A DNA stretch of 64,000 nt from Candidatus Omnitrophota bacterium (GTDB lineage: Bacteria; Omnitrophota; Gorgyraeia; Zapsychrales; Zapsychraceae), in contig JAKLDK010000001.1 of NCBI GenBank assembly GCA_022703565.1, forward strand, positions 8,017 to 72,016, written 5' to 3'. A program made the position numbers and the translations under genes. The notes under the pieces are model-generated. The model ran no database searches, was not told where the DNA came from, and worked only from the letters and a program-made list of their open reading frames with translations. This document shows, piece after piece, positions 2,408 to 43,950 of the stretch (positions within the stretch are counted from its first letter, which is position 1; each line of letters opens with the position of its first letter).

Positions 2408-2836
2408 ATGAACAAAGCGTTTTTGTTGTTAAGTTTGGTTTTCCTGGCGGGATGTGTAGTGACAACTCAAGAAGCATCTCTTCCGACGATATCGGAAACA
2501 ACAGCCTTAAGGAATGAAAAGGGTTTGACGAATATTGGTAAGGTTTACGTGGGAATGACATTTAGTGAAGTCAAAACAGTAATGGGCAATGTAACTACTA
2601 TAGGATACGAAAAGAGCCCGTTGAATACCTCCGGAAACGAGGCCATTACGATAAAGAATCCTTACCGGGAAGAGACTCTGGACATTAAAGGAAAGCAATA
2701 CCTGGTAGCTTATTATTTTATTAATGTTCTAAAATCCGACGAGATGGTTTCTGACGACGAATTAATCCCGCTTGTTTTTCTAAACGATTATTTAGTCGGA
2801 AAAGGTTGGGACTTCTTTATAAAGCTTAAAAACTAG
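2408..2836 (+). CDS. Hypothetical lipoprotein
   Basis: Signal peptide with lipobox LVFLAGC; no recognisable domain. Confidence 0.5.
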   Translation: MNKAFLLLSLVFLAGCVVTTQEASLPTISETTALRNEKGLTNIGKVYVGMTFSEVKTVMGNVTTIGYEKSPLNTSGNEAITIKNPYREETLDIKGKQYLVAYYFINVLKSDEMVSDDELIPLVFLNDYLVGKGWDFFIKLKN

Positions 2837-2853
2837 AATGGCCTTGTAATTTA

Positions 2854-3804
2854 GTGAAAGATTTCTTAAGTTTTTCTAATCCGTTAATTTTTTACGATAA
2901 AATCGAGCAAAACCTCAATTGGCAAGAAGAGTTTGGCCGCAAGGCTCCGCTTAATGTTGAGATCGGCTTTGGTATGGGCGAATTCTTAGTCCGGACCGCA
3001 TTAAAGAATCCATCTAATGATTTTGTTGGAATAGAAACCGATTGGGAGAGAATTCATAAAACATTAAAACGAATCAAACGTGAATCTACTGAACAAAAAA
3101 AAGAGCTGAAGAATGTCCGTATTCTAAAAATAGACGCGCGTATTGCATTTTTGTTTTTGTTTTCCAGCCAGGCAATCGATAATATTTTTTGTCTTTTTCC
3201 TTGTCCCTGGCCTAAAAAAGAACATATTAAATATAGACTTTTTACTAATGATTTTCTATCATTAATGAACAACCGTTTGGTCAGTAAAGGCCAAATCCAG
3301 ATTGTGACTGATTCTTTTCCCTTTTATGAATGGATTCTAGGAGAGGTAAAAAATAGCGGATTCTCGGTTAAGACGGAAAAGATATCTCCTAAATTTGACA
3401 CGAAGTATGAAAGGAAATGGCAGGCCGGCGGGCAAAATGAGTTTTATGAAATAGTTTTGATTAAAGAAAAACATATTAAGGTTGAAGAGCAAAAGAGGGT
3501 AAATTTGAAAGCATATAAAATTAATAACTTTAATCCGGATAATTTTCAGTTTGAAGATAAGACTGATGCGGTGTCGGTTATTTTAAAGGATTTTGTTTTT
3601 GATTATAAAAAAGAACGGGGTACGTTTTTGTTTGTTGTCGCGGAGGATAAGCTTACGCAATACTTTAGGGTGTTAATAGATAAAAGAAAAGATGGTTGGC
3701 AAATTTGCCGGGCTGATGGGCAAAATCTTTTTCCAACGCCGGGAATTGAAATGGCCTTACAGCTTACTTTTGAAGCGGTAGAAAAGACAGCGGCTCAAAA
3801 ATGA
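2854..3804 (+). CDS. trmB: tRNA (guanine46-N7)-methyltransferase with C-terminal extension
   Basis: Methyltransf_4 motifs LNVEIGFGMGEF, FVGIE, ILKIDA and FPCPWPKK; GTG start. Confidence 0.8.
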   Translation: MKDFLSFSNPLIFYDKIEQNLNWQEEFGRKAPLNVEIGFGMGEFLVRTALKNPSNDFVGIETDWERIHKTLKRIKRESTEQKKELKNVRILKIDARIAFLFLFSSQAIDNIFCLFPCPWPKKEHIKYRLFTNDFLSLMNNRLVSKGQIQIVTDSFPFYEWILGEVKNSGFSVKTEKISPKFDTKYERKWQAGGQNEFYEIVLIKEKHIKVEEQKRVNLKAYKINNFNPDNFQFEDKTDAVSVILKDFVFDYKKERGTFLFVVAEDKLTQYFRVLIDKRKDGWQICRADGQNLFPTPGIEMALQLTFEAVEKTAAQK

Positions 3805-4616
3805 AAAAGAGCCTAACTACAATATTAATAGCAATCTTTATATTAAATTCTACAATTCTGCATGCTAAAAAAAGTGCCGGGTATAAAATTTCCTGCCGCT
3901 CGGTTATTTTTTCGAATAGTACAAAGAAAAAAAGGCTATATTCCAAAGGCGAAAATAACCGCGTTCTTCCTGCGAGCACGGTTAAGGTCATGACGGCGTT
4001 GATTGTTTTAGAAAAGCTTTCTTTAGACAAGTATGTTCGGGTAAATCAAAGCGCTACTTATGTACAGCCTTCAAAGCTTTATTTAAAGCCAGGGGAGGAA
4101 TATAAGGTAGAAGATTTGCTTTATGCCATTCTTTTAAGTTCTGCTAATGATGCTAGTGTTGTTTTGGCACAAGCAGTGGCTGGGTCGGAGCAAAATTTTG
4201 TTAATCTGATGAACGCTAAAGCCAGGCGCCTGGGTGCAAAACATACGAAGTTTGCTAATTCCAACGGGTTGCCATCAAAAGCAACGCAATATACAACCGC
4301 TTATGATATGTATCTAATCTTTAGAGAGGCTTTAAAAAAGCCTTTTTTTAGAAATGCGATTAAAAAACAATATGCTACGATTTATTCAAAGTCTGGACGG
4401 CAAATTGGACTAGCCAGCCATAATAAAATGTTATTTAAAGGATGGCGGAAACATATTTACGGCAAAACCGGCTGGACCAGAAAAGCGGGGGGATGTTTTA
4501 TTGGCATGGTAGAGAAGAACGGCGATGATTTAATAATTGGCGTTTTTGGCTGTTCCTCGAAAAGATGGAATGACATAAAATATATTACAACGAAGTATGG
4601 CGGGATAAGATTGTAA
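3801..4616 (+). CDS. D-alanyl-D-alanine carboxypeptidase (peptidase S11, PBP5-like), secreted
   Basis: Signal peptide, SxxK active site in LPASTVKVMTAL, and an SAN motif (LSSANDAS). Confidence 0.8.
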   Translation: MKKSLTTILIAIFILNSTILHAKKSAGYKISCRSVIFSNSTKKKRLYSKGENNRVLPASTVKVMTALIVLEKLSLDKYVRVNQSATYVQPSKLYLKPGEEYKVEDLLYAILLSSANDASVVLAQAVAGSEQNFVNLMNAKARRLGAKHTKFANSNGLPSKATQYTTAYDMYLIFREALKKPFFRNAIKKQYATIYSKSGRQIGLASHNKMLFKGWRKHIYGKTGWTRKAGGCFIGMVEKNGDDLIIGVFGCSSKRWNDIKYITTKYGGIRL

Positions 4617-22108: not shown

Positions 22109-22726
22109 ATGGCGAAAATTAAATATACAAAAGGTGAATTAAAGAAACAAAGAGATGATTTGTCTTTGTTTAGCCATTATCTGCCGACATTGCAGCTTAA
22201 GAAGCAGCAACTGCAGCTAAAGATATTAGAAATCCGTCGGCTGATAGAAGAAAGAAAGGCCGCCTTTGCAGAATCAAATAAGTCAATTTTAAAGTGGATA
22301 GGATTATTATCCGATGCTAGAACGTCGATACTCTCTTGGATCAAGCCGGTCAAGATTTTATATTCCGAGGATAATATTGCCGGAGTTGATGTTTGGGTTT
22401 ACAAAGATGTTGTTTTCAAAGAAAAAGATTACGATTGTTATTCAACGCCTTTCTGGGTAGATAAGGCCATTGAAGCGTTACAGCAAAAGATGAAATTATT
22501 GGTTGAGATAGAACTTTTAAATAAACAAATATCAGTGTTAGGCGAGGAATTACGCATTACAACCCAGCGGGTTAATTTATTTGAAAAAGTAAAAATACCG
22601 GAATCGGTGGATAATATCCGTAAGATTAGAATATATTTGGGTGATCAAATGGCGAATGCTGTCGGTATAAGTAAAGTTGCGAAGAAAAAGACGCAAACGA
22701 GGGAAGCCTTAGAGGCCGCGGTATGA
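22109..22726 (+). CDS. atpD: V/A-type ATP synthase subunit D
   Basis: A 205-aa coiled-coil central stalk protein immediately after subunit B. Confidence 0.7.
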   Translation: MAKIKYTKGELKKQRDDLSLFSHYLPTLQLKKQQLQLKILEIRRLIEERKAAFAESNKSILKWIGLLSDARTSILSWIKPVKILYSEDNIAGVDVWVYKDVVFKEKDYDCYSTPFWVDKAIEALQQKMKLLVEIELLNKQISVLGEELRITTQRVNLFEKVKIPESVDNIRKIRIYLGDQMANAVGISKVAKKKTQTREALEAAV

Positions 22727-24513
22727 TTGTAAAAATGAAGAAAATACATTTAATTGTGCAAGAAAAAGACTCGAAGAGAGCGCTTAAGAATCTTGCTCTC
22801 TTGGGGGTTGTTCACGTCGAGCATTTAGAGGTCTTGACCGGAGAACCCTTGTCTAACATCAATCAGAATATTGACAAAATAAATAAAGCGATACAAATAT
22901 TAGGCCAAATTTCTGAAGCAAAGCCGGTTAAACAGGAAGTGTTGCCCAGAGAGAAAGTTGAATTAACTGTTGATGAAATATTAAAAAATAGCGAGCAAAT
23001 TGAGAAGCTAAAAGATAACCAGCAAAAAAGGCAGAAGCTCATAGATTATTGGAAAGCTTGGGGAGATTTTAATCTGGGGGATATTAATCTCATAAAAGAG
23101 AAAGGTTTAACTGTTTCTTTGTACGAGCTACTGTCCAGCCAGATGAAGCAGATTCCTACAGATGTTTTGGTTGAGAAAATAAGTATTTCCGGTGCGATTC
23201 ATTATTGTCTGGTTGTTTCTCGAGGAGAAATCATATTGCCGGGAGTTGTTGTTAATTTGCCGGCGCAAAGCCTAAATGATATGATTCGCGAACAAAAAGA
23301 AGAGCAAGAATTAATTGTTAATAAAGAAAATGATATTAAAGCGAAGCTGGTTTATAAAGATTTATTGCAAGATGCTTTATTGCAGAACCTTGATTTAAAG
23401 AGCTTTGAAGAAGCAAATGCCGGAATGCAGAAAGATGGGGTTTTAAGTGTGCTTAAAGGCTATTGTCCTATTCACAAAGAAAGTCTTTTGCGCGATGAAG
23501 CTGTAAAGAACAAGTGGGGATTATTGCTCGAAGAGCCAGAGGCTACAGATAATGTCCCGACGCTATTACAGAATAACCGATTTATCGAATTGGTGAAACC
23601 GGTTTTTGATTTTATGGGAATTGTTCCCGGATATCATGAGGCTGATGTTAGCTTTTGTTTTCTTTTGTTCTTCTCGATGTTTTTTGGGATTCTTATCGGA
23701 GACGCCGGGTATGGAGCAATATTTTTTGGCTTGACTTTTTACTTTCATCAGAAATTAAAGAATCAAGTAACAGATAAAAAACCATTTTATTTAGTTTATT
23801 TCTTAAGCTTTTGCGCAATTGCTTGGGGCCTTTTTACCGGAACATTTTTTGGCGCTTCTTTGTTTGGAAAATATGTTAAGCCGGTTATTCCGTGGCTGAC
23901 CGATGAGCGTAAAATGCAGTTTCTTTGTTTTTTAATCGGCTCTATTCATCTAACAATAGCTCATGTGTGGAGGGCTTTAAGAAAAGGCAAGTCACTTTTG
24001 GTTTTGTCTGACGTCGGATGGATTGTAATTATCTGGTCGGCGTTTTTTTATGCCCAGCAATTTATTCTAAATACCGCAGTACCGGCTTTTGTTAATCCGG
24101 CGGTTGGCATAGCTTTCTTAATCATCGTTGCATTTAGTCAAACTTTGGCTGATATTAAAAAAGATATTCCGGCATTTGTTATTGGAATAATGTTAACGGT
24201 TTTATCTGTTATTAGCACATTGATAGATGTAATTTCATATATCCGTCTTTTTGCCGTCGGGCTTGCCGGGTTGTTCTTGGCGGAATCTTTTACTCAAATG
24301 GCGCTGGGGATTGGTTTTAGAAACTTCTTTTTAGGATTGGGAACTATTGCCGTTTTGGTTTTGGGCCATATGCTAAATGTTATTTTGGGTGTTTTAGCGG
24401 TAATGGTGCACGGCCTTCGGCTTAACATCCTTGAGTTTTCCGGGCATTTAGGATTGGAGTGGAGCGGAAGGGCGTACAATCCATTCCGACAACAATATCA
24501 ACAAAAAACGTAA
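22723..24513 (+). CDS. atpI: V/A-type ATP synthase subunit I (a-subunit)
   Basis: Hydrophilic N-terminal half and polytopic C-terminal half; conserved Arg in HGLRLNILEF. Confidence 0.8.
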   Translation: MIVKMKKIHLIVQEKDSKRALKNLALLGVVHVEHLEVLTGEPLSNINQNIDKINKAIQILGQISEAKPVKQEVLPREKVELTVDEILKNSEQIEKLKDNQQKRQKLIDYWKAWGDFNLGDINLIKEKGLTVSLYELLSSQMKQIPTDVLVEKISISGAIHYCLVVSRGEIILPGVVVNLPAQSLNDMIREQKEEQELIVNKENDIKAKLVYKDLLQDALLQNLDLKSFEEANAGMQKDGVLSVLKGYCPIHKESLLRDEAVKNKWGLLLEEPEATDNVPTLLQNNRFIELVKPVFDFMGIVPGYHEADVSFCFLLFFSMFFGILIGDAGYGAIFFGLTFYFHQKLKNQVTDKKPFYLVYFLSFCAIAWGLFTGTFFGASLFGKYVKPVIPWLTDERKMQFLCFLIGSIHLTIAHVWRALRKGKSLLVLSDVGWIVIIWSAFFYAQQFILNTAVPAFVNPAVGIAFLIIVAFSQTLADIKKDIPAFVIGIMLTVLSVISTLIDVISYIRLFAVGLAGLFLAESFTQMALGIGFRNFFLGLGTIAVLVLGHMLNVILGVLAVMVHGLRLNILEFSGHLGLEWSGRAYNPFRQQYQQKT

Positions 24514-25295: not shown

Positions 25296-25368
25296 GGGCG
25301 GTTAGCTCAGCTGGTAGAGCTCCTGACTTACATTCAGGAGGCCGTAGGTTCGAGTCCTGCACCGCCCA
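25296..25368 (+). tRNA. tRNA-Val (anticodon TAC)
   Basis: A 73-nt cloverleaf: acceptor GGGCGGT/ACCGCCC, D-stem GCTC/GAGC, anticodon stem CCTGA/TCAGG with loop CTTACAT, T-loop TTCGAGT. No CCA is encoded. Confidence 0.9.
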
Positions 25369-25453: not shown

Positions 25454-25528
25454 GGGCTCGTAGTGTAGCTTGGTTAACATGTCAGCTTGTCACGCTGAAG
25501 ATCGCGAGTTCGAATCTCGTCGAGCCCG
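25454..25528 (+). tRNA. tRNA-Asp (anticodon GTC)
   Basis: A 75-nt cloverleaf: acceptor GGGCTCG/CGAGCCC, anticodon stem TCAGC/GCTGA with loop TTGTCAC, T-loop TTCGAAT. Confidence 0.9.
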
Positions 25529-37633: not shown

Positions 37634-38296
37634 ATGGCACGAATCTTATCTGCAAGGCAAATAAAGAAGCTGGACGAAATAGCGATGGAGAAATGCAGTA
37701 TCCCCTCAATTGTGTTAATGGAAAATGCTGGTAGAAAAGTTGCAGAAGAAATGTTTAACCTAGCGAAGAAAGTAAAAAATGTTTGTGTTTTTTGTGGTGT
37801 AGGAAATAATGGCGGGGATGGTTTTGTTGCTGCCCGGTATTTAGGGGAAAAAGATATTAAGGCGGACTGTTTTGTAATTGGGAAAGTAAAAGACCTAAAA
37901 AGTGATGCGGCAACAAATTATAGGATATTAAAGAAGTTAGGTTATAAAACATTTGCAATTGATTCGGCCGCCCGTTTTGTGCTCGAAAAATTAAAGAAAG
38001 CCGATGTTATTGTTGATGCGATATTTGGCGTGGGATTAAATCGAGAGGTTGGCGAGCCATTTAAAAGTATTATTAATTTGATAAACAAATCGAAAAAGAA
38101 AGTTATTTCGATTGATGTTCCTTCGGGATTAGATGCGACAACCGGAAAGCTATGGGGCGCTTGCGTGAAGGCTGATAGAACAATAACCTTTTCTTGTGCC
38201 AAAAAAGGGTTCTATATTAATTCCGGGAGGCAATATACCGGAAAAGTAATAATTGCAGATATAGGAATTCCGAAGAAGTTATATTTTAAGGTTTGA
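37634..38296 (+). CDS. NAD(P)H-hydrate epimerase (YjeF N-terminal domain)
   Basis: VFCGVGNNGGDGFVAARYL motif; 220 aa; no fused C-terminal dehydratase domain. Confidence 0.8.
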   Translation: MARILSARQIKKLDEIAMEKCSIPSIVLMENAGRKVAEEMFNLAKKVKNVCVFCGVGNNGGDGFVAARYLGEKDIKADCFVIGKVKDLKSDAATNYRILKKLGYKTFAIDSAARFVLEKLKKADVIVDAIFGVGLNREVGEPFKSIINLINKSKKKVISIDVPSGLDATTGKLWGACVKADRTITFSCAKKGFYINSGRQYTGKVIIADIGIPKKLYFKV

Positions 38297-38297
38297 T

Positions 38298-38960
38298 ATG
38301 GCTGTTACAAATAAAAACATTGGTGTCGTGATAAAGCTTTTAAGAAAAGGGATTGAACGATTTGAGGATCCGTCGGTAACTATGGTCGGGAGAAAATATC
38401 GTGATCCTTATTTGGTTTTGATTTCATGTATTTTGAGTTTGCGGACCAAAGACGAAACAACCATTCCGGCTTCGATGAGATTGTTTAATTTGGCAAAAGA
38501 CCCTAGAGCTATGTTAACCTTATCTGCTGAAAGAATTGAGAAGGCTATTTATCCGGTTGGATTTTTTCGCGTTAAAACGAGAAATATTTTAAGTATCAGC
38601 CAGAGCATTGTCCATGATTTTGGCGGAAAAGTTCCGGATGACTTGGATAAATTGCTTACTTTAAAAGGAGTGGGAAGAAAGACGGCCAACTTGGTTTTGA
38701 CCGAAGGCTTTAACAAGCTCGGCATTTGCGTCGACACTCACGTACATAGGATTTCTAACCGGATGGGCTATGTTAAGACAAAAACTCCTAATGAGACAGA
38801 GAATATATTAAGAAAACAATTGGCAGAGCAGTATTGGATTGAGTATAATGCGCTCTTAGTGGTATGGGGACAGAATATTTGCCGGCCTATTTCACCTTTT
38901 TGTTCAAAATGTCTTATTGAAAAATATTGCAAAAAAGAAGGCGTTATAAATAGCCGATAG
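38298..38960 (+). CDS. nth: Endonuclease III
   Basis: HhH-GPD LKGVGRKTANLVL, catalytic Asp (VDTHVHR), and a C-terminal 4Fe-4S cluster CX6CX2CX5C. Confidence 0.85.
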   Translation: MAVTNKNIGVVIKLLRKGIERFEDPSVTMVGRKYRDPYLVLISCILSLRTKDETTIPASMRLFNLAKDPRAMLTLSAERIEKAIYPVGFFRVKTRNILSISQSIVHDFGGKVPDDLDKLLTLKGVGRKTANLVLTEGFNKLGICVDTHVHRISNRMGYVKTKTPNETENILRKQLAEQYWIEYNALLVVWGQNICRPISPFCSKCLIEKYCKKEGVINSR

Positions 38961-38970
38961 AGTATTTTTT

Positions 38971-40269
38971 ATGAAATTCTTTATTTATTTTTCAGAATTA
39001 CTTGACTATAAGGTTTATGATTCCAAGGGAATGTATTTAGGGCAAATCCATGATTTGTCAATGCACATTACCGAGGAAATTTTCCCCCGCACGATAGGTG
39101 TTGTTGTCCGGCGGGGATTTTTGTTTAAAGAATATGTTAATGTCCCGATTGAGGTTGTTGAGCCGTATTATGAAGGTAAAATAAAGCTAAAGATAAAAAC
39201 GGCTGATTTAAAGTTTGTGAAAAAACAAATTCGTTGTGATTTTTCTCTCTCCCGGGATATCCTGGATCAACAAGTGGTTGATACTGACGGCCATAAGGTA
39301 GTCCGGGTTAATGATGTTCATTTGTTGATTGTTGAGAATATATTATACTTGGCGCATGTTGATGTGGGGACAAAAGGAATAATCCGCCGTCTGGGGTGGA
39401 CTAATGTAGTCAGAGGTGTCGTCGAATTCTTTATTCCCAATACTAATTATTTTAAGCAAGAAAAATTGATTTCTTGGAAAAACACCCATCCGATTCATAT
39501 TGGCCCCAAAAAGAATCTTTTACAAACTGATATTGCCCGTCAGAAATTAGCGCGCATACCGGTTGCTGAACTCGCGGATATTATGGAAGAGCTGGATATT
39601 TTTGAGAAATTGGCTTTATTTAAAACTTTTAGTGTGGAAATGCAGCGGGTTGTTTTCGCGGATATGTCGATACAGGAGAAAGAAGAGTTGATTGACCAGC
39701 TTGATGACCGGGAAGCGAGCAGCCTTTTGGAAAATATCCCTTCGGATGAAGCAACTGACCTTTTGCACAGTATCTCGCGAGATAAATCTACAAATTTAAT
39801 GCGATTAATGCATTCCCAATCTTCAAAAAAGCTACATAAGCTTTTGGGCTTTGAACAAAATACTGCCGGCGGGTTAATGACGACCGAATATTTATCTTTA
39901 CCGCAAAATGCATTGGTTAAAGACGCACTAGATAAAATAAAAGAGAATGCCGACCAGAGTAAATTTCCGGGAAATATAAATAGTATATATTTGGTGGATG
40001 AACAGAGTAGGCTTGTTGGGACGACAATTCTCCGCAGGTTTATTAATTCTGACCCGCAATCGTCACTGAGCAGCACTTGCCTTAATTCTAATGTTTCGGT
40101 TAAGACCGAAGATACGATTGAGGAAATAGCGTTGTTGATAGAAAAATATAAGTTTATATCAATCCCGGTTGTTGATGAAAACAATATTTTACAAGGGGTT
40201 ATAACTACCGACGATGTTATGGAAGAGCTGATTTCTTTGGCTTGGAAGAAATACAAAGATCAATTATAA
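38971..40269 (+). CDS. Soluble 2xPRC-barrel - MgtE_N - CBS-pair protein (MgtE cytoplasmic sensor module without a pore domain)
   Basis: Two PRC-barrel-like repeats (KVYDSKGMYLGQIHDL and QVVDTDGHKVVRVNDV), then the MgtE_N helical domain (ELADIMEELD...), then tandem CBS (TAGGLMTTEY..., ITTDDVMEEL). No TM segments. Confidence 0.7.
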   Translation: MKFFIYFSELLDYKVYDSKGMYLGQIHDLSMHITEEIFPRTIGVVVRRGFLFKEYVNVPIEVVEPYYEGKIKLKIKTADLKFVKKQIRCDFSLSRDILDQQVVDTDGHKVVRVNDVHLLIVENILYLAHVDVGTKGIIRRLGWTNVVRGVVEFFIPNTNYFKQEKLISWKNTHPIHIGPKKNLLQTDIARQKLARIPVAELADIMEELDIFEKLALFKTFSVEMQRVVFADMSIQEKEELIDQLDDREASSLLENIPSDEATDLLHSISRDKSTNLMRLMHSQSSKKLHKLLGFEQNTAGGLMTTEYLSLPQNALVKDALDKIKENADQSKFPGNINSIYLVDEQSRLVGTTILRRFINSDPQSSLSSTCLNSNVSVKTEDTIEEIALLIEKYKFISIPVVDENNILQGVITTDDVMEELISLAWKKYKDQL

Positions 40270-40271
40270 AA

Positions 40272-41534
40272 ATGTTCAAAAACATATTAAATAAAATTAA
40301 AAGTTCAAAAATATTTAGGAACCTATTTTTCTTTTTTGCTGTTATGGGCCCTGGGGTAATTACGGCTAATGTTGATAATGATGCCGGCGGTATCGCTACC
40401 TATTCTTTGGCCGGAGCCCATTTTGGATATTCTTTGGTGTGGTCTATTCTGCCGATTACAATCGCGTTAATTATCGTGCAGGAGATGTGCGCTCGAATGG
40501 CAGTTGCCACAGGGAAAGGATTGGCTGATCTTATTCGCGAGAATTACGGGGTGAAGGTAACGTTTTATCTCATGGTTGTTTTGTTTTTTGTTAATTTGTC
40601 GAACGTAATGGCTGAGTTTGCCGGAATAGCTATAAGTTTGGAAATATTTAATGTCAGCCGATGGTTTTCTGTTCCTATCTCGGCGTTTTTGGTGTGGATT
40701 TTAATTGTTAAAGGAAATTATAAGTCGGTTGAAAAAATATTTTTGTTTGCCTGCCTTTTTTATGTTGCCTATATTATTTCCGGATTTTTAGCCAAGCCCG
40801 ACTGGAATAATGTTATTCACCAGTCAGTCTCGCCGACAATTGATTGGAATGTCGCTTATCTTGTGATGTTGGTCGGGCTCGTTGGAACAACGATAGCCCC
40901 CTGGATGCAGTTTTATCTGCAATCTTCCGTTGTGGAAAAAGGCGTTACCGCCGAAGAATACAAAAATACGAAACTGGATGTTATTGAGGGCGGAATAATC
41001 GCACCGTTAGTTGCGTTTTTTATTGTTCTTTCTTGTGCGGCGACATTGTTTAATTCGGGAATAAAAATTGAATCTGCGGCTGATGCCGCTTTGGCCTTAA
41101 AACCTTTGGCTGGGAAATATGCCAGTTGGCTTTTCGCTTATGGTCTTTTCAATGCTTCAATATTCGCCGCATCCGTTTTACCGTTGTCAACTTCTTACAG
41201 CATTTGCGAAGGTATGGGCTGGGATACTGGGATTGATAAAAGGTTTAATGAAGCTCCGCATTTCTTTTGGCTGTATACGATAATGATTGTAATTGGTGCG
41301 AGCGTAATTCTAATTCCTAATTTTCCTTTACTTAAGGTTATGTATTTTTCGCAAGTAGGAAACGGTGTTCTTTTGCCTGTTATTTTAATTTATATGGCTC
41401 GGCTAATAAATAATAAAGAGATAATGGGTGATTTTGTTAATTCCCGCCGGATGAATATTATAACTTGGATTACGGTATGGCTCGTAATTATATTAACTCT
41501 TGCCATGGTTTTCTTCACGCTGACTCAAGGTTAA
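40272..41534 (+). CDS. NRAMP/SLC11-family transporter with NRMT-type (Mg2+) binding-site substitutions
   Basis: Start taken at the ATG at 40272 (MFKN...); the ORF-track TTG start at 40242 overlaps the upstream CDS. NRAMP TM1 GPG...TYSLAGAHFGY. Canonical DPGN is replaced by DAGG. Canonical TM6 GA(T/V)VMPHN is replaced by GTTIAPWM, so the selectivity Met becomes Ala and the Ala becomes Thr. Confidence 0.7.
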   Translation: MFKNILNKIKSSKIFRNLFFFFAVMGPGVITANVDNDAGGIATYSLAGAHFGYSLVWSILPITIALIIVQEMCARMAVATGKGLADLIRENYGVKVTFYLMVVLFFVNLSNVMAEFAGIAISLEIFNVSRWFSVPISAFLVWILIVKGNYKSVEKIFLFACLFYVAYIISGFLAKPDWNNVIHQSVSPTIDWNVAYLVMLVGLVGTTIAPWMQFYLQSSVVEKGVTAEEYKNTKLDVIEGGIIAPLVAFFIVLSCAATLFNSGIKIESAADAALALKPLAGKYASWLFAYGLFNASIFAASVLPLSTSYSICEGMGWDTGIDKRFNEAPHFFWLYTIMIVIGASVILIPNFPLLKVMYFSQVGNGVLLPVILIYMARLINNKEIMGDFVNSRRMNIITWITVWLVIILTLAMVFFTLTQG

Positions 41535-41583
41535 ACGCGTAATTTTATAAAAAACAATAAAAAAATTTGCATTATTAATTTAA

Positions 41584-41605
41584 TTGTGATAAAAATGTAT
41601 CACAA
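41584..41605. promoter_or_regulatory. Perfect 8-6-8 palindrome TTGTGATA-aaaatg-TATCACAA (candidate operator)
   Basis: Exact inverted repeat containing TGTGA...TCACA half-sites, in an AT-rich gap between the NRAMP gene and a downstream terminator. Confidence 0.4.
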
Positions 41606-41688
41606 TATAAATATTAAATTTGTAAGTTAAAATAATTTGTCGCAAAGAAAGGAAGAAAGAAGAGAATAAAATGAGATTTTAATTTCAA

Positions 41689-41727
41689 GGAGCCAGTAAC
41701 CATAGATTTTTGGGGCTCCTTTTTTTA
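41689..41727 (+). terminator. Intrinsic terminator
   Basis: GGAGCC, 17-nt loop, GGGCTCC, followed by TTTTTTTATTT. Confidence 0.8.
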
Positions 41728-41756
41728 TTTCTTTTTTGCTTTATAAAAGGTCAGAA

Positions 41757-42755
41757 ATGGGAAAAATAGTTGGAATAACATATGATTTAAAAGAGGACTG
41801 GAAGTTTAAAGAGGGCGATCCTAAGGATGCCAATGCCGAATTAGACCAGCCCAAAACAATCGATGCTATCGAAAAAGCATTGATTTCCAGCGGGCATAAA
41901 GTAAAACGCCTCGGAAATGCCTTTAATCTTTTAAAGCAAATAAATGATTTGGGAGTCGATATTGTTTTTAATATCGCCGAAGGGCATCGTGGGCGCAACC
42001 GTGAGTCGCAAGTCCCGAATATTTTAGAGATGTATGACATTCCTTTTGTCGGAGCAGACGCTTTAACGCTGGGGTTGACGCTGGATAAGATTGTAGCGAA
42101 AAAAATGTTTATTTCTGAAGGAATTCCCACTCCTAAGTTTTTTGCGGCTACAGGAAAAGAAGATTTGAAGAAATTAAATACAATTGGATATCCGTTGATT
42201 GTAAAAACAAAACACGAAGGCTCGTCAAAAGGTATTGATAAAAATGCCCGAGTCGAGAGTTTGGAGGCTTTAAAGGCTCGTGTAAAATATATTAATGAAA
42301 ATTATCATCAGGTGGCATTAGTTGAGGAATTTATCCGCGGTACGGAGGTAACTGTTCCGGTTATGGGTAATGATAATCCGGAAGCGATGCCGGTTGTTCA
42401 AGTCTGCATGGACAATAGCGTTGAGCTCGGCGACAAATTCTATTCTTTTGAAAGATTAAGCGTGCAAGCCGCAACTTTAACTTATGTTTGTCCTGCAAAA
42501 ATATCAAAAAAATTAGAAAAACAACTACAAGAAATTGCATTAAGAGTCTATAATTGTGTTGGATGCAGAGATTTTGGCAGAGTTGATTTTAGGATTGATG
42601 AAAAAAACAATCCTTACGTTTTGGAAATAAATCCTTTGCCATGCTTAATTCCGGAAGATACTTTTGGTATTTTCCCGCCGACAATCGGCTTGACATATAA
42701 TGATATTGTGAACAAGATTTTAGATAATGCTTTAAAGCGTTACAATATTTTATAG
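41757..42755 (+). CDS. ATP-grasp ligase of the D-alanine--D-alanine ligase family
   Basis: Ddl-like N-domain. ATP-grasp motifs IGYPLIVKTKHEGSSKGI, EEFIRGTEVTVPVMGN and GRVDFRID...PYVLEINPLPCL. Start at the ATG at 41757. Confidence 0.75.
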   Translation: MGKIVGITYDLKEDWKFKEGDPKDANAELDQPKTIDAIEKALISSGHKVKRLGNAFNLLKQINDLGVDIVFNIAEGHRGRNRESQVPNILEMYDIPFVGADALTLGLTLDKIVAKKMFISEGIPTPKFFAATGKEDLKKLNTIGYPLIVKTKHEGSSKGIDKNARVESLEALKARVKYINENYHQVALVEEFIRGTEVTVPVMGNDNPEAMPVVQVCMDNSVELGDKFYSFERLSVQAATLTYVCPAKISKKLEKQLQEIALRVYNCVGCRDFGRVDFRIDEKNNPYVLEINPLPCLIPEDTFGIFPPTIGLTYNDIVNKILDNALKRYNIL

Positions 42756-42762
42756 GAGAATA

Positions 42763-43950
42763 ATGGGCCCGTTAAAAGGATTTAATAATAAAACTCAGGA
42801 AAGCATCCCCGCAGAAAGAAACACAATAAACCTTACCAGAAAAGAATCCCGTTTTATTGATTTTTACGAAGAAGCAACAGCGCTTGATTGGGAAGATTGG
42901 CGTTGGCAACTTAGAAATAGAATTACGACCGAAGAACAGCTTTCTAAAATAGTTGGCTTGGTCGATGAAGAAAAAGCCGGGATAGAAGGCTGCGGTAAAA
43001 AGCTTAACATGGCGATTACCCCATATTTTGCATCACTCATGGATCCTAAAAACCCTAATTGTCCGGTTCGATTGCAATGTGTCCCCCGAGGTGCGGAGTT
43101 ACAAGTGGCCGAGGATGAAATGATTGACCCTTGCGGAGAAGAAAAAGATTCTCCCGTAGAGGGATTGGTGCACCGTTATCCGGACCGTGTTTTATTCCTG
43201 GTTAGTGAAATGTGTGCGACATATTGCCGTCATTGTACCCGCTCCAGAATTGTTGGCGAAGGAAAAAGAAAGCTTGGCCCCAAAACATATAAAAAAGCTT
43301 ATGATTATATACGCGCAAACAAAAATATCCGCGATGTCTTAATTTCCGGCGGAGATCCTCTTTTATTAAGCGATGAAGTATTGGAAGATATCATTAAAAA
43401 TATCAAAGAAATTCCGCATGTTGAAATGGTTAGAATCGGTACTCGAGTGCCGGTTACTTTGCCGCAGAGAATCACGGAAGATTTAGTTAAGATGCTTAAG
43501 AAATATTCTCCGATTTGGATGAGCATTCATTTTAATCATTATAAAGAAATTACCAAGCGTGTTAAATATGCCTGTGAAATGTTGGCTGATAACGGGATTC
43601 CTTTAGGAAGCCAAACAGTTTTGTTAAAAGGCATTAATGATGCTCCGTCGGTAATGAAGAAATTAATGCATGAACTTTTGCAGATTAGGGTTAGGCCGTA
43701 TTATATTTATCAATGTGACCCTATTGTTGGCTCAAAACACTTCAGGACGAAAGTTTCGACCGGAATTAATATTATGGAAAACCTTCGTGGACATACTACC
43801 GGCTATGGCGTTCCTACCTATGTAATTGATGGCCCTGGCGGAGGGGGCAAAATTCCCATAGCTCCGAATTATATCGTTTCTTATGAAAAAGGGCATTGTA
43901 TTATAAGAAACTTTAAGGGTGAGCAGTATCATTATAACGACCCGCTTTAA
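42763..43950 (+). CDS. kamA: Lysine 2,3-aminomutase (KamA-family radical SAM)
   Basis: Radical SAM CATYCRHCTRS, GGDPLLL motif, KamA-type N-terminal WEDWRWQLRNRI. At 395 aa it is full-length KamA rather than the shorter EpmB. Confidence 0.8.
   Translation: MGPLKGFNNKTQESIPAERNTINLTRKESRFIDFYEEATALDWEDWRWQLRNRITTEEQLSKIVGLVDEEKAGIEGCGKKLNMAITPYFASLMDPKNPNCPVRLQCVPRGAELQVAEDEMIDPCGEEKDSPVEGLVHRYPDRVLFLVSEMCATYCRHCTRSRIVGEGKRKLGPKTYKKAYDYIRANKNIRDVLISGGDPLLLSDEVLEDIIKNIKEIPHVEMVRIGTRVPVTLPQRITEDLVKMLKKYSPIWMSIHFNHYKEITKRVKYACEMLADNGIPLGSQTVLLKGINDAPSVMKKLMHELLQIRVRPYYIYQCDPIVGSKHFRTKVSTGINIMENLRGHTTGYGVPTYVIDGPGGGGKIPIAPNYIVSYEKGHCIIRNFKGEQYHYNDPL

Follow-up and report, generated by a model that had tools for sequence, protein, structure and literature searches.

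A known type of nrmT operon in a Candidatus Omnitrophota bacterium: an NRMT-type transporter gene behind a gene for a pore-less, PRC-bearing MgtE-like partner

Most nrmT genes adjoin a gene for an MgtE cytoplasmic domain, and Shin et al. (2014, PLoS Genet 10:e1004429, PMC4072509), who reported this association, speculated that the MgtE-like neighbour exerts feedback regulation from the cytoplasm, listing metal chaperone activity as an alternative role for it. In their single co-expression test, with Acp2976/Acp2977 of A. capsulatum, rescue was unchanged. The A. capsulatum NrmT, whose gene adjoins that of a partner and lacks an M-box, remedied a defect in Mn2+ transport and restored Mg2+ only poorly; Ca_c0685 and Ca_c3329 transport alone, and NRMTs alone complement Mg2+ auxotrophy (PMC4072509). 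Purified EleNRMT also transports alone, and it carries Mn2+ as well as Mg2+; in vitro, the isolated protein lacks stability and its apparent affinity is low (PMC8806188). The NRMT signature consists of DxxG in α1 and TxxA/T in α6, replacing DxxN and AxxM, and is accompanied by loss of the proton-pathway histidines on α6b and by uncoupled transport; T224, G58 and A227 of EleNRMT are important for Mg2+, and NRMT-site swaps introduced into EcoDMT gained no Mg2+ transport (PMC8806188). The association has been known for a decade, yet EleNRMT was characterised, both structurally and functionally, in the absence of the partner. Shin et al. is the only publication on NrmT with an MgtE-like partner that our literature search found; the later NRAMP papers searched do not discuss the partner.

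The window, that is, the whole 64,000-nt stretch of Candidatus Omnitrophota contig JAKLDK010000001.1 analysed here, contains a genuine two-gene unit of this kind, in which a pore-less copy of the MgtE sensing domains precedes a magnesium-type NRAMP relative (NRMT). Both open reading frames lie on the + strand: the NRMT-associated MgtE-like partner, or sensor, at 38971–40269 (432 aa, soluble, with a tandem-PRC/MgtE_N/CBS-pair architecture) and the NRMT-type SLC11/NRAMP transporter at 40272–41534 (420 aa from the ATG at 40272). An earlier note on this DNA had the two genes overlapping by a few nucleotides, which holds only if the transporter starts at the TTG at 40242 chosen by gene callers (430 aa, 28-nt overlap) and fails with the ATG at 40272, which homologue N-termini favor and which lies 2 nt past the TAA stop of the partner. 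On the other side, the stop of the upstream nth gene is only 10 nt from the partner ATG. A promoter-like site inside the 3′ end of nth (TTGGCA-18-TATAAT, 38820–38849, + strand) is unverified and may be due to chance; the match has no statistical weight because the region holds fewer such sites than its shuffled versions, and promoter and terminator scans gave no signal exceeding shuffled expectation. The seven other membrane ORFs of the window (BacA, a PEMT/ICMT-like protein, a V-ATPase-I-like protein, a PMT_2 glycosyltransferase, CvpA and two ABC permeases) were screened and include neither a detached MgtE pore nor another Mg2+ transporter.

The transporter matches the Pfam Nramp profile (PF01566) over its entire length (positions 1–357 of 357, 338.7 bits) and has nine hydrophobic segments by a simple scan. 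Its match to EleNRMT (7qia; E = 1.7e-113, 383 bits, 45% identity over 404 ungapped residues) far exceeds that to the best canonical NRAMP, DraNramp (2.2e-28, 103 bits), and it scores 155 with the NCBIfam MntH model, under the cut-off of 430; by these similarity scores (383 bits versus about 100 or less), it sides with NRMT and not with MntH, as the earlier note had supposed. The motifs on which that supposition was built, DAGG in TM1 and GTTIAPW in TM6, are present as described and identical to EleNRMT at D55, G58, T224 and A227: in the TM1 metal-site motif N-D-A-G-G (40377–40391, + strand) D37 and G40 correspond to D55 and G58, and in the TM6 motif G-T-T-I-A-P-W (40884–40904, + strand) T206 and A209 correspond to T224 and A227. 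EleNRMT residues E133 and Q379 are conserved as well, and both α6b proton-pathway histidines are replaced, the P-H...L-H-S of DraNramp aligning with P-W211...L-Q217-S, in which W211 takes the place of the first His. GTTIAPW, which was not among the two patterns used to find the 80 related loci, occurs in 78 of them. NRMT motifs alone do not guarantee the Mg2+ specificity of a given pair, because the A. capsulatum NrmT behaved as a Mn2+ transporter.

For the upstream gene, Pfam, TIGR00400 and hydropathy agree in bearing out the earlier description of a cytoplasmic part of MgtE with added PRC barrels and no membrane domain. Pfam assigns PRC to residues 5–65 (27.9 bits), MgtE_N to residues 197–296 (63 bits) and a CBS match of 56.7 bits, and gives no match to PF01769, the five-helix pore of MgtE; TIGR00400 (NCBIfam mgtE) scores 146 bits, under its cut-off of 232.75, and aligns only over profile positions 21–255 of 450, the cytoplasmic half; and the protein has no hydrophobic segment, its maximum 19-residue Kyte-Doolittle mean being 1.26. 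The PRC-barrel fold (PF05239) is present in tandem. Barrel 1 (38971–39225, + strand, residues ~1–85) and barrel 2 with a helical insert (39238–39528, + strand, residues ~90–186), the best-conserved part of the partner, together make up about 45% of its 432 residues, adding ~190 N-terminal residues to the MgtE module. This module consists of the helical MgtE_N domain (PF03448; 39529–39858, + strand, residues ~187–296), which holds D259 and D263, and of the CBS pair (39859–40233, + strand, residues ~297–421, placed by Pfam and PDB alignments), which holds D415 and E418. Foldseek comparison with MgtE cytoplasmic domains yields TM-scores of 0.79–0.83, normalised to target length, at 25–28% identity. 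In the literature searched, PRC barrels are not linked with MgtE, and we found no report of the partner's N-terminal tandem PRC.

The same order of domains, tandem PRC followed by MgtE_N and CBS, is found in proteins of 595–611 aa that align with partner residues 3–418 at 28–29% identity; two of five match PF01769, and four of five have five C-terminal hydrophobic segments. Because these ~600-aa MgtE channels carry PRC-MgtE_N-CBS in cis, the partner is a pore-less version of this PRC-bearing channel subclass. The two PRC-MgtE loci that were fetched (P0449 and P0484) have no NRMT neighbour, and the idea that the PRC barrels are an NRMT-specific docking device is weakened because full-length MgtE channels share the tandem PRC module. 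No sensor-NRMT fusions occur in the 150 best representatives of the PRC module, which reach 611 aa at most. Lone tandem PRC proteins of ~200 aa were considered as a split variant and set aside: of the two checked, one (L169) looks frameshifted and the other (L168), of doubtful status, ends 74 nt before the end of its contig.

Some, and only some, of the MgtE ligand positions are kept. Alignment with T. thermophilus MgtE (2yvy/2yvx) places its D91 (Mg4) at D259, D95 (Mg6) at D263, D247 (Mg4) at D415 and D250 (Mg5) at E418, while E59, D226, E258 and D259 are lost, being replaced by V227, K394, K426 and K427. Family-wide, the D263 position is the sole near-invariant one (67 of the 69 diverse homologues retain it); the D91 equivalent varies between D and S, and that of D247 among D, N and S. 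The MgtE ATP site, formed by Y170, R187, D188, N203 and F227, corresponds to S338, R355, R356, L371 and F395 of the window partner, and its conservation in the family is partial: the Arg is found in 56 of 69 members and the Tyr, absent from the window partner, in 59 of 69.

The window has no Rfam match at the gathering threshold, and the region 38000–41800 has none at E ≤ 1, M-box (RF00380) included; riboswitch regulation of this locus is ruled out because neither the M-box nor another Rfam family lies near the genes. In six Geobacterales loci (L020, L021, L023, L035, L036 and L070), an M-box does precede the partner gene, with scores of 128–146 bits for complete copies and 57.6 bits for the L020 copy, which is cut by the contig end; the orthologous pairs under its control are ~60% identical to the window pair. 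It is conceivable, if on balance unlikely, that in the window organism Mn2+ or some other divalent cation, and not Mg2+, is what the pair handles and senses; the missing M-box, the failure of the EcoDMT swaps to confer Mg2+ transport, the Mn2+ transport of EleNRMT and the Mn2+ rescue by the likewise M-box-less A. capsulatum NrmT favor this reading. The conservation of all three Mg2+-relevant EleNRMT residues (T224, G58 and A227), the match of the near-invariant D263 to an MgtE Mg2+ site and the M-box control of the Geobacterales orthologues argue for Mg2+ instead.

We posit that the locus represents the known nrmT operon type, in which an NRMT carrier would be joined by a soluble regulatory subunit, the pore-less PRC-MgtE gating module; we give this reading about an even chance. 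The downstream NRMT would import Mg2+, and probably Mn2+ too, without proton coupling, as EleNRMT does. At high cytoplasmic Mg2+, cations would bridge acidic residues of the MgtE_N and CBS domains, by analogy with MgtE, and the bridged module would clamp shut and bind the cytoplasmic face of the NRMT, blocking uptake; at low Mg2+, the module would open and release the carrier. From the same analogy we infer that the partner could regulate the NRMT in trans, that it would do so through direct contact and inhibition at high Mg2+, and that Mg2+ would be the ion sensed. In favor of this reading are the NRMT identity of the transporter, the synteny of the two genes in both directions and in Eggerthellaceae, the retained ligand positions and the occurrence of the same module in cis; the M-box upstream of the Geobacterales pairs provides a link to magnesium, and the same role was proposed by Shin et al. 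in 2014. Other observations speak against it: NRMTs transport without the partner, co-expression in A. capsulatum had no effect on Mg2+ rescue, several MgtE ligand positions are lost and two relatives keep the partner with no NRMT at the locus. Alternatively, the partner might not be an inhibitory gate at all but assist the transporter, for instance as a metal chaperone, by aiding its assembly or stability, or as an activator that high-affinity uptake requires. The chaperone role listed by Shin et al., the instability and low apparent affinity of EleNRMT alone in vitro and a tight operon arrangement that fits a stoichiometric complex are consistent with this proposal; we nonetheless think it quite improbable, as rescue was not improved by the partner in the one test made, NRMTs complement Mg2+ auxotrophy by themselves and the homologous MgtE module is an inhibitory gate.

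The survey of genomes proposed in the earlier note revealed a pairing very strongly conserved across many phyla. In all 70 NRMT loci with at least 1400 nt of upstream sequence, the partner gene lies directly upstream on the same strand, with a median gap of 28 nt; these loci come from Omnitrophota, Syntrophales, Geobacterales, Nitrospirota, Binatia, Planctomycetota, Acidobacteriota, Zixibacteria, Ignavibacteria, Eubacteriales and others. Conversely, an NRMT gene is adjacent in 71 of 73 partner loci, directly downstream in 70 and divergent in one; two syntenic relatives, L094 and L099, keep an intact partner with no NRMT at the locus. In Eggerthellaceae, a gene for a 450-aa PRC/MgtE_N/CBS protein lies 3–4 nt upstream of the genes for proteins that share 91–92% identity with the crystallised EleNRMT. 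The two NRMT-less loci, together with the use of PRC barrels as generic protein-protein modules (RimM, the RC-H subunit, CdpB), could mean that the partner targets another transporter or enzyme, or is a general Mg2+- or nucleotide-responsive CBS regulator, and that adjacency reflects co-regulation only; adjacency in 70/70 and 71/73 loci across phyla is far above what is usual for mere co-regulation, and fusion of the module to a Mg2+ pore in relatives points the same way, making this explanation very doubtful. Since it matches the first ~420 residues of PRC-MgtE channels of ~600 aa, the partner ORF might be suspected of being what a disrupted mgtE left behind, a functionless 5′ piece in decay, but its conservation as an ORF in its own right all but refutes this: it is intact and full-length beside the NRMT in 70 of 70 loci, its homologues form at least 120 full-length clusters at 50–68% identity (~30% across phyla), stop at the same place and always have the NRMT next, no pore remnant lies between the window genes, which are 2 nt apart, and no MgtE pore domain was found among the other membrane ORFs of the window. 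The partner is not a recently broken mgtE; a disrupted mgtE was one of the outcomes that the earlier note had weighed against its own proposal.

Taken a step further, the regulatory-subunit reading would make the PRC-MgtE_N-CBS module a detachable gate, fused to its pore in one lineage and pore-less in hundreds of genomes, where it would dock in a Mg2+-dependent manner on an NRMT of the LeuT fold; we consider this tentative, at somewhat less than even chance. If it is true, a channel gate has been re-used in trans on an unrelated carrier, the PRC barrels are integral to the gate, and the properties of EleNRMT in vitro (low affinity, uncoupled, unregulated) are those of half of the native machine. 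The strict pairing, approaching 100% in both directions across phyla and extending to Eggerthellaceae relatives of the crystallised protein, together with the occurrence of the same module with an MgtE pore in cis, makes a testable case for NRMTs as regulated two-subunit transporters; if they are, this bears on how Mg2+ homeostasis is understood wherever NRMT is used, as it is in many anaerobes and uncultivated phyla. The advance is incremental, and this is not a new kind of system. What is added here are the tandem PRC barrels, the in-cis PRC-MgtE link, the retention of some ligand positions, the M-box contrast and the two relatives that lack an NRMT.

Because both the pairing and the idea of regulation were published in 2014, the window locus adds one more ordinary case to a system already described. 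Like the nrmT operons at the Ca_c0685 locus and Acp2976/Acp2977, it has an MgtE cytoplasmic-domain homologue immediately upstream of an Nramp-related transporter; unlike the M-box-regulated nrmT operons of Shin et al. (2014), it has no M-box, and whereas their text speaks of a 'small protein' and makes no mention of an N-terminal tandem PRC barrel, the window partner has 432 aa, nearly half of them in tandem PRC. The transporter has the same metal-site residues as EleNRMT of Eggerthella lenta (7QIA/7QIC/7QJI/7QJJ; Ramanadane et al. 2022, eLife 11:e74589) and has likewise lost the histidines; EleNRMT was studied alone, and we did not find the upstream PRC/MgtE_N/CBS gene of its close relatives in the text of that paper. 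The partner shares the MgtE_N and CBS-pair module with T. thermophilus MgtE (2YVX/2ZY9; cytoplasmic domains 2YVY, 2OUX, 8GPV and 8GPS) but differs from MgtE in having no pore, in lacking the acidic plug-helix residues (E258/D259 being K426/K427) and in carrying two PRC barrels. The archaeal tandem PRC proteins CdpB1/CdpB2 (8QZO, 8ONW), which act in FtsZ-based cell division, are 16% identical to the partner and lack MgtE_N and CBS. The PRC-MgtE channels, represented by P0449 and P0484, share the partner's domain order and continue from it into the MgtE pore.

The sensor gene (38971-40269, + strand, 432 aa) and the co-directional transporter gene (40242 or 40272 to 41534, + strand) lie within a long + strand series of housekeeping genes, preceded by era, a YjeF_N gene and nth, the last separated from the sensor ATG by only 10 nt. 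The overlap of a few nucleotides described in the earlier note exists if the transporter begins at a TTG at 40242, but not if it begins at the ATG at 40272, which lies 2 nt past the sensor TAA and is better matched by homologue N-termini; the two genes are tightly linked whichever start is used. Just downstream, 41736-43950 encodes an ATP-grasp (D-Ala-D-Ala-ligase-like) protein and then a KamA-like (lysine-2,3-aminomutase-like) radical-SAM enzyme; the same two genes follow the sensor in the metagenome loci L094 and L099 and are therefore a conserved neighbour. GC skew is positive in all 2-kb bins of the window (1-64000), with cumulative skew climbing monotonically throughout, and all genuine-looking ORFs of the listed 36-46 kb stretch are on the + strand, a picture that fits one replichore read along its leading strand. 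The sole Rfam matches in the window are two + strand tRNA genes (25296-25368 and 25454-25528), near which a 596-aa membrane ORF (22723-24513) weakly matches V-ATPase subunit I.

The transporter is a full-length Nramp-family protein (338.7 bits, Pfam) whose top match among all PDB sequences is EleNRMT, the crystallised Eggerthella lenta NRMT (7QIA; E=1.7e-113, 383 bits, 404 residues aligned ungapped, 45% identity). It does not side with MntH: canonical NRAMPs reach 103 bits at most in the same comparison. All residues singled out in the EleNRMT study (D55, G58, T224, A227, E133 and Q379) are retained, which fits the DxxG-TxxA/T signature of the NRMT clade (Ramanadane et al. 2022, PMC8806188), and both α6b histidines of the proton pathway are replaced, by W211 and Q217. 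The EleNRMT match and the retained residues thus show that the NRMT-type motifs had been read correctly.

In the sensor, Pfam recognizes a PRC barrel (residues 5-65), MgtE_N (197-296) and CBS; the claim of more than one PRC barrel is borne out, though the second falls under the Pfam threshold by sequence. The NCBIfam mgtE model aligns over profile positions 21-255 of 450 only, scoring under its cut-off, and nowhere does the protein reach the hydrophobicity needed for a membrane helix. Residues 188-421 can be aligned to MgtE cytoplasmic domains of known structure; the AlphaFold model (pLDDT 80.6) superposes on these, Foldseek giving TM-scores (normalised by target length) of 0.79-0.83. The sensor is whole rather than the remnant of a broken mgtE: full-length homologues (~428 aa, 50-68% identity) fill at least 120 database clusters, the named ones mostly from Omnitrophota, and neither an MgtE pore nor CorA is found among the other membrane ORFs of the window. 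Its C-terminal tail, SLAWxKYKxxL (residues 422-432; 40234-40266), is highly conserved within Omnitrophota-type homologues, 42 sequences having no change at W425 or Y428, and shows no conservation across phyla; where MgtE has acidic plug-helix residues, the tail has basic and aromatic ones.

The pairing extends well beyond this locus. An NRMT-alignment scan, with one genome per species, yielded at least 592 relatives, and the best 80 were examined. Seventy of these loci include 1400 nt or more upstream of the NRMT gene, and every one has a sensor homologue immediately before that gene on the same strand, a count that describes this NRMT subclade and not all PF01566 outgroup proteins, since the sample was picked by two NRMT peptide patterns and similarity ranking. 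Intergenic distances have a median of 28 nt, and the sensor is intact over its full length, PRC region included, in 68 of the 70, being truncated in L026 and frameshifted in L060. In the latter, a Spirochaetota MAG (2687-3891), it is spread across three reading frames, suggesting a frameshift or faulty assembly. The loci come from Omnitrophota, Syntrophales, Geobacterales, Nitrospirota, Binatia, Planctomycetota, Acidobacteriota, Zixibacteria, Ignavibacteria, Aminicenantes, Eubacteriales and others. Conversely, among 80 metagenome loci from a sensor-alignment scan, 73 have at least 300 nt downstream; NRMT directly follows the sensor in 70 of these and adjoins it in 71. The one addition, L134 (1235-3781), with NRMT upstream on the opposite strand, is the sole divergent arrangement seen. 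The observation of a pore-less MgtE-type sensor beside an NRMT is confirmed.

One link to magnesium comes from Geobacterales, where an M-box directly precedes the sensor gene, not the NRMT gene, in six of 28 related loci scanned (L020 1-92; L021 1991-2157; L023 2433-2598; L035 2434-2600; L036 2430-2596; L070 649-868, ~330 nt before the sensor start). Scores are 128-146 bits for the five complete copies and 57.6 bits for the L020 copy, cut by the contig end. M-boxes are absent from the remaining 22 loci and from the window, whose sensor-NRMT locus is a typical representative without a riboswitch, from a lineage not yet cultivated. When the Mg2+ sites of T. thermophilus MgtE (Maruyama et al. 2018) were transferred to the sensor via the PDB alignment, four residues proved retained (D91 as D259, D95 as D263, D247 as D415, D250 as E418) and four lost (E59 to V227, D226 to K394, E258 to K426, D259 to K427). 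D263 alone is near-invariant (67 of 69 diverse homologues), the D259 position being D/S and the D415 position D/N/S, and the ATP-site residues (Tomita et al. 2017) are only partly retained. This pattern is compatible with a divalent-cation sensor without proving one.

The earlier note proposed that the soluble sensor regulates the NRAMP-derived pore in trans. We posit, at roughly even chances, that the sensor acts in trans as a Mg2+-responsive inhibitory subunit, the most likely mechanism; we infer each of its parts, namely physical contact with the NRMT, direction of effect and sensed ion. Several observations count against it. NrmT transporters are active without the partner, and rescue by the A. 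capsulatum pair was unchanged by co-expression, the transporter acting as a Mn2+ importer (Shin et al. 2014, PMC4072509). MgtE ligand residues are, as noted, incompletely conserved. Finally, L094 (2498-3793; contig Ga0163144_10002366) and L099 (907-2196; Ga0214923_10016160) preserve the order era, nth, sensor, ATP-grasp, KamA-like with intact sensors of 431 and 429 aa and no NRMT gene, spacers of ~300 and 110 nt standing at its expected place; the sensor therefore persists after the neighbouring transporter is lost.

The origin of the sensor bears on its role. Searched alone against 1.84 billion representatives, the tandem PRC region gave 948 matches at E<=1e-3, most complete-looking ones having the sensor architecture (~410-450 aa). 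Five (P0449, P0473, P0480, P0484, P0510) are 595-611 aa long, with N-terminal tandem PRC followed by MgtE_N-CBS. Four of them carry five hydrophobic segments at the C-terminus, and the MgtE pore model PF01769 scores on two. A rough neighbour-joining tree, weak evidence in itself, has these channels branching basally to the pore-less sensors and in part within them. Because they share its module, the NRMT partner is a pore-less form of this PRC-bearing MgtE subclass, which strengthens the case for the module as a gate for a Mg2+ pathway. A dedicated NRMT-docking purpose for the PRC barrels becomes less likely, as no NRMT lies near the two such genes whose loci were fetched (L166 2615-4429; L167 1603-3390).

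Neither the pairing nor the proposed mechanism is new to the literature: Shin et al. 2014 found most nrmT genes adjoined by one for the MgtE cytoplasmic domain and suggested feedback regulation. Text searches found no mention of the partner in the EleNRMT structure paper or in the later NRAMP papers searched for it, and in the literature searched no paper joining "PRC-barrel" with "MgtE" and no mention of the ~600-aa architecture. New, to a modest degree, are the tandem PRC barrel, the finding that PRC-MgtE channels contain the same module, how strict the synteny is, and the partner beside close EleNRMT relatives. In Eggerthellaceae contigs L082 (2645-5416) and L084 (2644-5296), which have no M-box and carry a convergent Rrf2-family regulator gene just downstream, a gene for a 450-aa PRC/MgtE_N/CBS protein stands 3-4 nt upstream of one for a transporter 91-92% identical to EleNRMT.
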